A stretch of DNA of 64,000 bases from Eledone cirrhosa (Eukaryota): positions 32,426,001-32,490,000 of the forward strand of contig OZ024746.1 in assembly GCA_964016885.1 (NCBI GenBank), in the 5' to 3' direction. The position numbers and the translations under genes are program-made. Below the pieces are notes generated by a model, which saw only the letters and a program-made list of their open reading frames with translations, ran no database searches and had not been told where the DNA came from. Each line of letters opens with the position of its first letter. Within the stretch, counting starts at the first letter, position 1. Positions 813 to 5,481 of this stretch are shown here, piece by piece.

Positions 813-1008
813 ATAGGAACGAGTAGGACCCCAACGGCTGAGCTCAAGCCGTTTCGACGGCTAATTCTGGACTGTGAATTAGCCGTCGAAACGGCTTGAG
901 CTCAGCCGTCGGGGTCCTACTCGTTCCTATTACCCACTCTACTACCCTAAGTATTGAGTACTTGGGTGCGTTATGGTCCACCTGGTTCCTTACCACATTT
1001 CCTTCGTT
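813..1008 (+). mobile_element. Family B element: 55-bp-arm palindrome made of two hammerhead 3' halves, plus tail
   Basis: Arms 813-867 and 876-930 differ by one mismatch. The right arm reads GCCGTC-GAAA-CGGCT..AGCCG-TC^GGGG. (TA)n on both sides. Confidence 0.85.
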
Positions 1009-1612
1009 ATATATATATATATATATATATGTTATGTAATATACATGTGTCATTGTTTACATACCATCGACCACTTACGAAAGATTGCCACGACTTATTT
1101 TGATTAGAAGTAAAATAGATAAATAAAAGTTTGTGGAGAGAAAGAAAGACAAAAGAAGAGAGGGAGAGAAAACTATCGTAAATTCCTCGTGACTCACATT
1201 TTTGTTTTAGATATGTAAATAGTAATATAATTGTAACGGTTTCTAATTTAGATACAAGACCAACAAGATAAAGATGGTAGTGGTGGTGGTGATTTTATCC
1301 ACCTCAGTACATAACTGGTACTTTATTTTATCGGCCCATGAATGATGGAAGGCAAAATTGACATCAGTTGGACTTGATTGAATTCAGAACATAAAAGGGT
1401 TGTAATGAATAATATTAATTTACTAATAAATTAGGGGTCGATAAAATATAGTGCCAGTAATCCACTGGGTAATTGCTGGCCTTGTGCCAAAAGTAGAAAC
1501 AATTATTAATAATTAATAATAATAATGATGATGATGACGATGATGATGATAATGGTGGTGGTGGTGATGATGATGATAATGGTAATAATGGTGATAATGA
1601 TAATGATGATGA

Positions 1613-3385
1613 TTTCTTTTATTGGCCACAAGGGCCCAATATATTTGGGACAATACGAGGACGAAAATCGATATTTACACTGAGTAAAACAGTATAAGTA
1701 TAACAGCAACAATAATTGTTATAAATAGTCATGATAACAATATCAAACAATAACAAATATCATCTAAGAACAGCCCCCTCACCAGTAGTGGGAGGTGGCG
1801 TGGGATTGTGATTTAAGGTAATTCCAGGGAAATCTCCACATAAAACTCCCACGGAAAGTGTCCTCTCTCTGTTAGATTAGGCTCATTCAGTCGAGTCACT
1901 GTTATCCCATCTTTCATAAAACACACTAGAAGGTACCAACTCCCTTTCAACCACCACATAGAAGGCATCACATCCCTCTCCGCCGTCACTTTCATCCTTA
2001 AATGGTTGATGATGGCTTGACCGGAGAGGAAGCTTCCCACCCTAAAACTCCTTAGACATGTCCATCACACAGTTTCTTTCGTCATAGCTACCAGACAAAG
2101 GAAGAGATGCCATCCTACCTTTCTAAAGGAAGGTGTCGGCTCAATTTTCACTATACACCCGGATCTGATAGCCTGATCTACACGTTCGACACAAGCCCAT
2201 AACTCTGCAATGTACGGGCACAGGATGATGATGCTCTGTGTGCATCTCTGATATGACCCGTCTATTGGCATTTCCATGCCTGTAGAGCTTGTCTTGAACT
2301 GATAATTCCCCTCTGCAGCACTCCCATGCCAAGGATTTTGGGAAATTGCCTCCTGGAGAATCAGCTCAGACAGTCCTCGTCGGCGCTCAGAGTTGCTCCT
2401 AGGCCACCATTACACATAGCTTTCATTAACTTTGTATAGAAAGAAATCGTTTTTTGGCCGCCTATTGAGTTGTCCAGCTGGTAAAGTGCCGTGAGAGGCT
2501 GGCAGTACTCTAGATGCCAGGTGCCATGACTGGGGTTCTGTCAGTCGACGAAGGTGCCCGTCCACAATGGTTGGACTTCGCTTTCGTTGTCATCGTCGTC
2601 GCAGTAATCGAGATATTTCTGAAGGTGCGATAGCTGCAACGCATGCCTGCGCATTCTTAACGATAGCATCTCAAGGCCACCACGGAGCGGATGTTGGTAG
2701 CAGATGGATTTTCTCGCCAACGAGACTTGTCCCTTCTATAAAAAGTGGAAGAGCATGCGTTCCACTCAGGTAAGATGTTTAGGGAGTGGTGACATGACCC
2801 AAAGGCCAGGTGGTTATACACTAGCGAAGCAATGTAGATGTTGACCAACTGCACCAACCTTTGAAGGACGGCTATTTTTCTATCCATTTCTGAGTGAGAC
2901 TGGCTACTTTGTTCCTGACCCCCCCCCCCCCAACAGTCATTGTCTTTTTGGAGATCCGGTTCAAACCAGACTCCTAACATTTAACCGGGCTCTCAGTCCA
3001 GCGGTAGAAATTGCACTGGCCGACATGGACTAGCCTCGCACGTGCAAACTGACTTGTCCTAGTTAATGCAAGCTCCAGTAACCAGCTGGTATTCTTCCTG
3101 TATGGAGCCGAACAGTCTCTATATTTGAAGTGTCCACTTAATTTGACTAGTGTAGAACGTAGCGATCCAGCTTCTGAAAATGGGGCCCAAATCTTACGAT
3201 AGTCCCCAGGTAACGAAGGCTGACTCTGTGGAAAACTTTTGAATAATTTAGACTGACCAGCGCTCCGCAACAGACTGGTCTTCGTCTGCCCTACTCTACG
3301 ATATCTCTTATGGGGTGGAGGCTGTCGTGGATAGGTCTGCCTGGGGTCAAACTACCAATAACCAGCTCCAACCCCACAACAACAA
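1613..3385 (-). mobile_element. Degenerate Tx1/L1-clade LINE (RT and C-terminal remnants)
   Basis: Fragmented ORFs (LGVWFEPDLQ, GRPIHDSLH, VGSFLSGQAIINH) match the intact ORF2 at 49125-52360. The 3' ends are similar. Many stops and frameshifts. Confidence 0.9.
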
Positions 3386-3399
3386 CAATAACAATAATC

Positions 3400-3568
3400 C
3401 TTTCTAATATAGGCGCAAGACTAACAATTTGCGGAGAAGTGAAGTCAGTCACATCGACTTCAGTACATGACTGATAATTTATTTTATCCGGAAGATAAAA
3501 GGCAAAGTTGACTTCGGCGAGATTTGAATTCAGAACATAAAAGGCCGTAGCCAAAAATGCCGCTAAGC
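3400..3568 (-). mobile_element. tRNA-derived SINE (family S1), diverged
   Basis: Reverse complement of the TCTGAGTTCAAATCCCGCCGAGGTTGACTTTGCCTTTCATCC core. Other copies at ~1240-1390, 14280-14399, 15810-15950, 33625-33870, 46900-47005, 57220-57420 and 63050-63120. Confidence 0.8.
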
Positions 3569-4506
3569 AGAAAAAAAAAAAAAAATTAAGGAAGATTAAA
3601 ACATTTGTTACAAGGGCAGAGATATTTCGAAGAGAGTGTTATGGTTGATTATATTGATTACCCGAGTGTATTACTGGTGCTTCACTTCTTTCCGTCTACT
3701 TCGACGGCATGTAAACACAGAACGAAGGCGAAACAATACACAACACACACACATATTCATACAGACGCATACGCACACATATATATTTATATATATATAC
3801 ATACATACATACACATGCACATATATATGCACGCGCACATATATATGTATGTATGCATATATATATATAAACACGCGCACACGCCTACTTACATATATGT
3901 GTATGTGTATGCATATATAGATATATATATATAAATAAATAGACACATACACACACACACTTTTCGTATATTAAATTACATAGTTACACATTGATTAAAG
4001 TGTGGTGTAAATGTAGTGTAAGTATTTGTATGTGTGTTGTAAGTGTGTTATACGATAAATACCGCGCAACCCTACTACAAAAACACGAGACGGTCAAATG
4101 AGTTAGGAGAGAACGTCAGATAAACAAGATAAGAACAGAGAGAGAGAGAGAGATTGTGTCTGGAATTAGAACTGGTGACTGTTGGATTTAAACTTACCGA
4201 TTCTGAATCCATCACATAGATTGTGTGTCTCTAATTGGTGTGTGTGTGTTACTGTACTATTATAGATATGTGTGTGTGTATATATATATGAGTCTCTCTC
4301 TATATATGTGTGTGAGTATGTGGCTGCAGAGTATTCAGTAAACACATGCCACAGTTTTCCACTACACACCGCAATATACAAATGATAATCAACGCCTTCC
4401 TTCCTTACTCTCTCTCTCTCTCTCTCGCTCTCTCTTAATATACCACTCTTTCACACACACTTTCTTTTTCTCTCTCCTTCTCTTTCTCTATATATATATA
4501 TATTTC

Positions 4507-4751
4507 ACACACGCACGCACGCACACACACACGCACGCACGCACGCACGCACGCACGCACGCACGCACGCACGCACGCACGCACGCACGCACGCACGCAC
4601 GCACGCACGCACGCACGCACGCACGCACACACACACACACACGCACACACACAGACACACACACGGAGACACGCACACACACGCACACACACGCACACAC
4701 ACACGCGCGCACACACACACACACACACACACACACACACACACACACACA
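4507..4751. repeat. (GCAC)n/(CA)n microsatellite
   Basis: Direct reading of the sequence. Confidence 0.95.
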
Positions 4752-5036
4752 TATATATAATGATGATGATGAAGATGATGATGTGTGTGTATATATATAA
4801 GCATGTGTGTGTGTGTATGAAAGAGAAAGGTACACATCATACATTTGTCTATATGCAACAGTAGCAGCTTTGTAACTTATGAAAACCATTTCACACACAT
4901 ATTCAGACGTACACGAACATACACACATACACACTTATACACACACATGCACACATATACATACACACATACATTAACACATATACACATACATACACAC
5001 ATTAATACTAGTATGGAAGACTCATTATCTCATGAA

Positions 5037-5220
5037 TGGATTGGCAGTATCGGTAGAGGGTCGGACGCCATGCTTTCCAGCATAGTTATGTCCCCTTACG
5101 ATATGAGTTCAAATCCCGCCGAGGTTGACTTTGCCTTTCATCCTTACGGGGTCGATAAAATAAAGTACTAGTAATGCACTGGGTAATTGCTGGCCTTGTG
5201 CCTAAAGTAGAAACAATTAT
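5037..5220 (+). mobile_element. tRNA-derived SINE (family S1)
   Basis: A-box-like TGGCAGTATCGGTAG and B-box GAGTTCAAATCC. Near-identical to 8420-8607. Confidence 0.85.
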
Positions 5221-5282
5221 CTCATGAACACATACTGCTATTGCTCTATATGGAATACAGCCACTCCTATATATAAATATAT

Positions 5283-5481
5283 ATAGGAAAAAGTTTAACC
5301 CCGACGGCAGAGCTCAAGCCGTTTCGACGGCTATTTCTGGAGTCTAGAAATAGCCGTCGAAACGGCTTGAGCTCTGCCGTCGGGGTTAAACTTTTTTTAC
5401 TATTACCCACTCTACCACTCTAAGTATTGAGTACTCTGGTGCGTTATGGTCCATCTGGTTCCTTACCACACCTCCTTCGTT
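5283..5481 (+). mobile_element. Family B element, second palindromic copy
   Basis: Arms ~5288-5340 and 5344-5396. Same hammerhead 3' half and tail as 813-1008. TA-rich flanks. Confidence 0.85.

Follow-up and report, generated by a model that had tools for sequence, protein, structure and literature searches.

The insertion unit described for endonuclease-bearing (EN+) Penelope-like elements (PLEs) contains a head-to-head inverted, 5'-truncated copy, a tail at one end and a palindrome at the junction (PMC3846280; PMC8557442). Where these accounts deal with the inner ends, they treat them as truncations or as products of self-priming, the latter having been proposed already for such palindromes (PMC3846280). 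For another PLE, Poseidon PAc of Anolis, two internal starts of reverse transcription bounding the tail, cutting and extension of both target strands and a predicted dimer have been described (PMC11167929). The formation of inverted and tandem PLE insertions and the role of the hammerhead ribozyme are called open in the relevant sections of recent work (PMC8557442; PMC11167929), and our literature search found no paper on capped-end run-off or two-strand priming in PLEs.

Here, we analyzed a window of 64,000 nucleotides from Eledone cirrhosa (contig OZ024746.1), which holds two short hairpins with this architecture. The inverted pLTR with a one-sided tail is a known layout and the element itself is of a known kind. 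In contrast to the units in the published descriptions, the inner ends pile up at one base, where an additional G is present, and the longer arm may be either of the two.

Layout of the insertions in the window

Element positions are counted from the base matching 19604 (+1), and the 3' strand of helix II starts at +11. The following features were assigned:

814-873, minus strand: tail-less arm of copy 1, element +1 to +60, with the half ribozyme from loop II to GAAA, stem III, the cut site and the tail-less end at TA
874-875, no strand: junction insert GT of copy 1, 2 nt, untemplated by either arm
876-929, plus strand: pLTR portion of the tail-bearing arm of copy 1, +7 to +60
930-1008, plus strand: one-sided tail of copy 1, then (TA)n; in full elements the stretch between the 5' pLTR and the ORF
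5284-5341, minus strand: tail-less arm of copy 2 (a different subfamily from copy 1), +3 to +60, base 5341 being common to the right arm
5341-5402, plus strand: pLTR portion of the tail-bearing arm of copy 2, beginning at +1
5403-5481, plus strand: one-sided tail of copy 2, then (TA)n
19447-19663, plus strand: tail-less pLTR copy of greater length, with TA repeats on both sides and a complete predicted U3-A8 hammerhead (core at 19561-19567, GAAA at 19622-19625, cleavage predicted after 19644)
19575-19608, plus strand: predicted promoter within stem-loop II, with a TATA-like word some 29 to 22 nt upstream of +1 and an Initiator-like one around +1 (19604)
63878-64000, minus strand: tail-bearing arm of the family of the hairpins, beginning at most 2 nt from the predicted ribozyme cut (about 63978), with a same-orientation junction to the 5' part of an ORF running past the window

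The arms are paired at 52 of 53 aligned positions in copy 1 and at 53 of 54 in copy 2, the two copies being about 86% identical to each other, and the mirrored differences between them that a preliminary description had listed (CTG/CAG, AATTC/ATTTC) are present. The right arm of both copies extends for about 78 nt (930-1008 and 5403-5481) as a tail without a mirror image. The inner breaks lie at +1 and +7 in copy 1, where the tail-less arm reaches 6 nt farther upstream than its tail-bearing partner, and at +3 and +1 in copy 2. They fall within stem-loop II, but in the 3' part of the loop of about 39 nt and not in helix II, the preliminary description having placed them inside stem II. The UUGAGAA half of the ribozyme core is, as described before, missing from both palindromes. 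The GT before +7 was considered as a special recurrent feature and dropped as a query artefact, the tail-only set having GT in the window's own copy alone. Both hairpins are real head-to-head stubs of a Penelope-like retroelement in (TA)n.

The parent element and its ribozyme

The hairpin sequence is the pLTR of an autonomous reverse transcriptase (RT)-endonuclease element. A frame of 794 codons was found at one locus (L090), with YRDD and VIY..YIG motifs that are shared by 14 aligned homologues. Neither Pfam nor PDB returned a named match for the ORF or for 7 homologues, and the RT and GIY-YIG domains were assigned by motif. The defining features of EN+ PLEs were found here: a single ORF with a PLE-type RT and a GIY-YIG endonuclease, by motif only; partial-tandem pLTRs with an adjacent inverted truncated copy and an optional one-sided tail (L074, L088, L089, L090); and a hammerhead motif in the pLTR, by fold and core positions.

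The protein (P0001) carries RWR (RWK in homologues), DKT, CNLC, CKH and one Cys between VIY and YIG, and the CxCX5C linker is complete in L005, with its third Cys altered in L090. These are Hydra-clade motifs, and by motif content the element is a Hydra-type PLE. It shares with that clade, as far as the clade's description covers these traits, the single ORF with a C-terminal GIY-YIG, the RWK-type and DKT motifs, the CxCX5C linker, CxxC and CxH around E and N with no CCHH, the hammerhead in the pLTR and (TA)n targets, the hosts including Mollusca (PMC8557442). Compared with the same description, the unit is longer (about 3.3 kb against "generally <3 kb"), as is the tail (about 78 nt, where 30-40 bp are given), the stubs number tens of thousands and the core is non-canonical, UUGAGAA or CUGAGAA. 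The Neptune clade, our first guess, failed the CCHH test, and the feature looked for as a mark of the Neptune, Nematis or Penelope/Poseidon clades was absent from P0001 and the 13 aligned homologues covering the domain. Non-LTR retrozymes are characterized, in the available part of their description, by head-to-tail tandems with complete hammerheads (bioRxiv 10.64898/2026.07.22.740005); the stubs are head to head and core-less, and the sole tandem seen (L266) is also without a hammerhead core.

The complete ribozyme motif that had been placed at 19556 is borne out by prediction: folded without constraints, 19550-19662 takes the form of a three-way junction of the hammerhead type, in which UUGAGAA occupies 19561-19567, GAAA lies at 19622 and cleavage is predicted after 19644 (+41). 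By energy alone, the fold does not reach significance (z -1.62, with 13 of 200 shuffled sequences scoring as well), and Rfam gave no hammerhead match in the window or on a 251-nt pLTR. Nearly half of the complete cores (28/66) have CUGAGAA, with a C3-A8 mismatch. The present motif resembles the PLE hammerheads described in PMC4209133 in its U3-A8 core, its short helix I, its palindromic loop 3, its pairs on opposite strands and a long helix II that has one base unpaired close to the 5' end. It differs from them by a helix III of about 6 bp and a loop II of about 39 nt that holds the predicted transcription start.

Pairing of the arms across the genome

At least 12,036 head-to-head stubs with a spacer of 0-28 nt were counted in the genome, and a further 1,968 had a spacer of 29-57 nt. 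Their outer ends are fixed and flanked by TA, with insertion in (TA)n in the window copies and at most loci. Each stub joins one tail-less and one tail-bearing arm: this was the case in 95 of 95 pairs found with mostly tail-biased queries, in 15 of 15 found with a search pattern blind to 3' ends and in all 8 cut-site stubs. The longer arm was the tail-less one in 25 of the 95 pairs and the tail-bearing one in 27, with 43 equal (p 0.89), counts that keep a few arm ends misplaced by indels (L124, L133, L159, L173); in the 3'-blind set the split was 6 vs 5, with 4 equal. Tail-less arms can even be ORF-bearing and have a short tail-bearing partner (L005, L077, L081, L088). The joints differ between copies, and joints of one type are shared by several subfamilies and found with either arm longer; some joints recur, e.g. 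+1 joined to +7.

The arms match in a diagnostic block in 57 of 68 pairs, and their mean distance in 48 nt is 2.9 within copies vs 5.5 between copies. However, in only 6 of the 68 pairs is an arm more similar to its partner than to the nearest foreign arm, so the match is at the level of the subfamily. The earlier conclusion that each arm was copied from its own partner hence does not follow from the sequence, whereas an origin of both arms from one source holds: the arms match since each carries the variants of the source subfamily. No clean pair with arms from two different subfamilies, as expected of separate RNA molecules, was found, either among the 68 pairs or in three candidates; L298 is confounded by a neighboring insertion carrying the same variant.

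Inner ends of the arms

The distribution of arm ends over the family is strongly non-random. Among 130 arms from the tail-only set and random loci, 72 end at -4 to +10 and 5 in the 25 upstream loop bases (p 2e-26 against a model of uniform ends in the loop). The 3' strand of helix II holds 11 of the ends, which speaks against this helix as the cause of the break. Exact counts in the genome gave 63,008 arms at +11, 26,181 reaching +1 and 6,230 reaching -8, the last number being a lower bound, as the pattern misses some subfamilies (e.g. L227, L228, L234). A genomic T precedes +1 in 16,029 of the 26,181 arms, and the limit therefore spans a few bases.

In 413 stubs, both arms are complete to +1 around a single centre base. 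This base is G:C in 45 of 50 among the matches listed (413 total), where the templated base would be A:T (p 4e-9 vs 0.5); this and the two centre-base tallies given below, for the cut-site and neighboring-base classes, were made by eye on 50 matches listed each, from contigs C1-C2. Many a G or C before +1 is explained by the partner arm, and a controlled comparison on few arms supported the extra G weakly (7/13 vs 27/127, p 0.016). Reverse transcriptases can also add C without a cap. In LINE-1 (L1), an extra G likewise marks the capped 5' ends of full-length insertions, according to the part of that study concerned with 5' ends (PMC11702581), and a D. virilis transcript is described as beginning inside the pLTR (PMC2377424, in its section on this transcript).

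Stem-loop II contains words at the spacing relative to +1 expected of a promoter. We take these to be TATA-like and Initiator-like motifs; no convincing downstream promoter element was seen by eye. Of 29 distinct ORF-linked 5' pLTRs, 4 end at -3 to +10, 12 extend farther upstream and 13 end downstream. Jumps from +1 were also found: in L266, all three units begin at -3/+1 and two of them are joined directly from position +254, while in L281 the joining is from +955. A splice acceptor at +1 was considered and dropped, as the arms retain the AG and have no common upstream exon. Taken together, the sharp limit at +1 and the extra G likely mark the capped start of the element RNA, as read from its DNA copies alone. 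The predicted start within loop II would explain why the 5' half of the ribozyme is missing from most genomic copies.

A minor class of stubs begins at the predicted ribozyme cut. Among the matches listed, 12 of 50 (315 total) have both arms starting at the cut around one A:T centre and 1 has a G:C centre, while the same pattern one or two bases farther on was seen in 0 of 50 among the matches listed (251 total); 13 blunt joints at the cut site were omitted as ambiguous (2-nt microhomology). CpG decay was rejected as the source of the A:T centre, since undecayed C stands at 1 vs 12 and the neighboring CpG class is mostly intact.

Discussion

The family and layout of the stubs, their one-of-each pairing, the sharp limit at +1 with its extra G and the cut-site class are probably best explained by two cDNAs that were primed on opposite strands, ran off the capped 5' end of the RNA and were then joined. 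The endonuclease would cut both strands of (TA)n, and each 3' end would prime reverse transcription at one of two internal sites, at about +58 and about +138, on RNA templates coming from one source. Both cDNAs would extend, over about 60 and 140 nt, to the RNA 5' end and often gain a C opposite the cap, after which the two ends would be trimmed and joined via microhomology, A-tails or short snap-back copying. Longer copies would stem from read-through RNA or from a cDNA that switches from the 5' end to a different position on the RNA, and the stubs themselves are likely dead ends. The UUGAGAA half would be absent because the RNA likely starts downstream of it.

Twin priming of LINE-1 also yields inversions through priming on both cut strands, but its two cDNAs represent separate regions of the RNA, whereas those proposed here both span +1 to +60. 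Retroviral strong-stop DNA is likewise a short cDNA from the 5' end region of the RNA, but the present case does not imply a tRNA primer, RNase H or integrase. The proposed internal RT starts bounding the tail, the cutting and extension of both strands and the AT-rich target resemble Poseidon PAc, which belongs to another clade and whose description, in the parts on insertion, contains neither capped-end run-off nor head-to-head joining; no reads ending at the ribozyme cut appear there, in contrast to the minor genomic class found here (PMC11167929).

Of the other explanations, the one that survives best, though it is unlikely, is that the limit at +1 reflects a block on a longer RNA (a bound protein or a tertiary fold) or a later central deletion of long palindromes. 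The family does have long palindromes (L019, L022), 12 of the 29 ORF-linked pLTRs extend past +1 and central deletion of long palindromes is a known phenomenon; yet neither event would lead one to expect a G without template at a single position, an equally untemplated A:T where the cut is predicted, correctly spaced promoter-like words or jumps that repeatedly land on +1.

The preliminary description had suggested fold-back of cDNA or template switching at stem II; in the fold-back reading, a single cDNA comes to a halt at stem II and then turns back on itself as template for the second arm. The matching arms, the missing mixed-subfamily pair, the snap-back inserts seen at some joints (L300; L244/L245) and the published proposal of self-priming, as far as it is set out in PMC3846280, all agree with this, but as a full account it is quite improbable. 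The 25 pairs with a longer tail-less arm, window copy 1 included, exclude fold-back from the tail-primed strand for that class, and fold-back from the tail-less strand cannot yield a tail; the ORF-bearing tail-less arms are also at odds with this reading. A one-base centre is too tight for an intramolecular fold-back loop, few arms end in the helix strand and the own arm is rarely the closest. Fold-back is thus contradicted as the sole mechanism, with one arm made wholly from the other, and survives as a joining step.

It is very improbable that the short palindrome is a self-propagating non-autonomous element copied as a unit: the very high copy number and the recurrent joints would fit, but joints vary from copy to copy, and the same joint types across subfamilies with either arm longer are what independent events would give. 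A MITE with terminal inverted repeats and a TA target duplication, suggested by the fixed, TA-flanked outer ends, is refuted by the tail of about 78 nt beyond the supposed right repeat, the varying centres and an autonomous partner that encodes a reverse transcriptase with a GIY-YIG-like domain instead of a DNA transposase and whose pLTR is the hairpin sequence, which bears out the earlier view of a retroelement integration product.

Run-off of two cDNAs from a capped end may be part of a larger cycle, which we put forward tentatively and consider rather less likely than not to be correct in full. With a promoter inside hammerhead loop II, the RNA would start with half a ribozyme and end with a whole one, and cleavage in the 3' copy would leave a retrovirus-like terminal repeat (+1 to +41). 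A cDNA primed near the 5' end could run off the cap and jump to the 3' end, giving the pLTR and full copies. The palindromes would then be failed double strong-stops, and the genome would record both capped ends (extra G) and ribozyme-cut ends (extra A). If true, this would show that a PLE hammerhead is cleaved in vivo and that the cleavage product serves as a template.

The more than 12,000 junctions give exact predictions, namely that the RNA has its capped start at +1, that reverse transcription begins near +58 and +138 and that the cut falls after +41. About 12,000 short hairpins have been added to the genome, and these could form double-stranded RNA if they are transcribed.

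Structure and Affiliation of the Element

Both hairpins of the window (copy 1, about 814-1008, and copy 2, about 5284-5481, tails included) are indeed near-perfect, their arms pairing at 52/53 and 53/54 aligned positions, and the two copies share about 86% identity. (TA)n surrounds each of them, and a tail of about 78 nt without a mirror image extends the right arm. The connection from the hairpins to an ORF of a Penelope-like (PLE) family came from L005, a locus of the 3.0 Gb E. cirrhosa genome. In twenty 9.9-kb stretches around ORF matches the order was pLTR, tail, ORF, 3' region and pLTR, frequently with an inverted partner, the tail being the stretch that links the 5' pLTR to the ORF body. 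A 794-codon frame (L090) has 345 unnamed homologues near 40% identity, and its product found no named match in Pfam or PDB. The motifs of this product match those that section 11 of PMC8557442 sets out for the Hydra clade, a placement by motif and not by tree; the other C-terminal clades were rejected, as the product fails their CCHH test.

Positions in the element are numbered from the base matching window 19604 (+1), within the following copy:

19447-19663: pLTR copy with a hammerhead-type junction predicted by folding (core 19561-19567, GAAA at 19622, predicted cut after 19644)

The folding energy of this region is ordinary (z -1.62), and a search of Rfam did not find its hammerhead. A U3-A8 core is already described as a PLE hammerhead variant in PMC4209133. 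Complete cores read TTGAGAA in 31/66 long pLTR copies and CTGAGAA, a C3-A8 mismatch, in 28/66; since the latter include ORF-bearing copies, part of the family has likely spread with an impaired ribozyme.

Several other features were observed. The window holds sequence at 5040-5230 that appears to resemble a tRNA-derived SINE of octopus genomes, a decayed tail from an older related family at 17507-17549 (77% identity), a large 56-bp tandem satellite at about 24300-32000 (128 registers of a 300-nt reference, about 95% identity), and a local rise in GC to 55% at 50001-52000 against a background of 36-42%. By eye, short CTGA..GA/GAAA-type words were seen at 17695-17740 and the end of another GIY-YIG-like ORF at L027:1-1400, which suggest that further PLE families share these TA tracts.

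Most Arms Stop Near +1 Rather Than in Helix II

The preliminary description placed both breaks inside stem II. The 3' strand of helix II spans +11 to +18, and the window arms end at +1/+7 (copy 1) and +3/+1 (copy 2), all within the loop. We mapped 130 arm ends in two sets of sequence, 60 loci recovered with tail queries and 40 stretches of 10 kb at even spacing; this sample misses very short arms and arms close to locus edges, and its tail queries favour young copies. Of these ends, 72 lie at -4 to +10 and only 11 in the helix strand. The 25 bases of loop that lie upstream hold 5, the core region holds 1, another 33 lie further downstream, and 8 arms retain the whole ribozyme. Exact genome counts are concordant (63,008 at +11; +1 reached by 10,152 plus 16,029; -8 by at least 6,230). 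Helix II as the trigger is thus not upheld.

Head-to-head spacers measure 0-28 nt in 12,036 cases and 29-57 nt in 1,968. By eye, roughly 10/50 of the longer ones among the matches listed hold upstream template, the remainder consisting of A/T runs or duplicated +1-region sequence. In L003, L030, L165 and L246 the arms are separated at +1 by long stretches of A and T, suggesting A-tailing or slippage at cDNA ends.

Both Arms Derive From a Common Source

A tail-less arm, stopping at the pLTR end, was paired with a tail-bearing arm in 95/95 head-to-head pairs, a set in which tail-less pairs are under-sampled as most queries held the tail; a search pattern that ignored 3' ends recovered the same pairing in 15/15. 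The longer arm (by at least 4 nt) was tail-less in 25 pairs and tail-bearing in 27, with 43 equal, a tally that keeps four ends misplaced by indels. Fold-back of a single cDNA, as proposed earlier, would make the second arm wholly from the first. However, a tail-primed cDNA folding back cannot supply upstream sequence absent from it, and a tail-less one cannot produce the tail. Each arm instead reads as a cDNA extended from the target 3' end on its own strand. For another PLE, PMC11167929 reports in vitro that two RT start sites bound the tail and that both strands are extended.

In 68 pairs with both arms covering +11 to +58, arms differed by 2.9 nt within a copy versus 5.5 between copies, and a diagnostic block was identical between arms in 57. 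Arms are thus closer within a copy, but the own arm was nearer than the closest foreign arm in only 6/68 pairs (17 ties), and the mirrored differences once taken as evidence that each arm was copied from its partner recur in other copies. The match between arms therefore shows that both have one source, not that one was copied from the other. As no clean pair of two different subfamilies was found among these pairs and three further candidates, the arms may stem from two readings of a single RNA or from two RNAs of one locus.

What survives of fold-back is a joining step at some joints, and it does not account for a whole arm: L300 and L244/L245 carry short inserts for which the arm's own strand served as template, and snap-back may help to link two cDNAs that share a polarity. 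A blunt +1-to-+7 join was found repeatedly.

Proposed Transcription Start and Predicted Ribozyme Cut

In 413 stubs (short head-to-head arm pairs) a single base separates two arms that each extend fully to +1. This centre is G:C in 45/50 among the matches listed, where template would give A:T; a smaller controlled extra-G test was weak (7/13 vs 27/127). A word that we take to be TATA-like lies about 29-22 nt upstream of +1, which itself falls within a presumably Initiator-like word. In L1, capped ends are recognised by an extra G (PMC11702581), and the D. virilis transcript start lies in the pLTR (PMC2377424). From these observations together we infer a capped transcription start at +1.

Arms leaving the template near +1 adjoin an antisense partner in 70/96 cases. 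In L281 an arm is joined in sense direction to an internal position (from +955), and in L266 such a join occurs two times (from +254); in L005 the sense join is to the 3' region. L266:1300-2030 (G000:C1:27009447 onward) comprises three tandem units without ribozyme core, each beginning at -3/+1, two of which (257 nt) end at ORF position +254; an inverted tail-less arm is also present. Since among 29 ORF-linked 5' pLTR ends only 4 lie near +1, with 12 running upstream and 13 lying downstream, some copies must stem from read-through RNA or from homologous jumps.

Around the predicted cut there is also a smaller class of 315 mini-palindromes. Among the matches listed, starts exactly at the cut on both arms had an A:T centre in 12/50 and G:C in 1/50, in contrast to the +1 centres (p 3e-8); one or two bases past the cut, none of 50 listed among 251 showed this pattern. 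All eight cut-site stubs retrieved in full (8/8) were genuine tail-less/tail pairs. The window holds a related copy:

63878-64000 (-): family copy whose tail-bearing arm starts at most 2 nt from the predicted cut and has a sense-oriented join to an ORF-internal position

L296 likewise has a tail-bearing arm from the predicted cut with a sense join to an internal ORF position, and both joins look like template jumps. The cut-site starts in the stubs and in the 63878-64000 copy suggest occasional in vivo cleavage by the ribozyme.

An inverted copy with a one-sided tail is an established PLE insertion unit (PMC3846280, PMC8557442). The family is a further member of this type, and the mechanistic reading, drawn from DNA copies, is a well-supported proposal.
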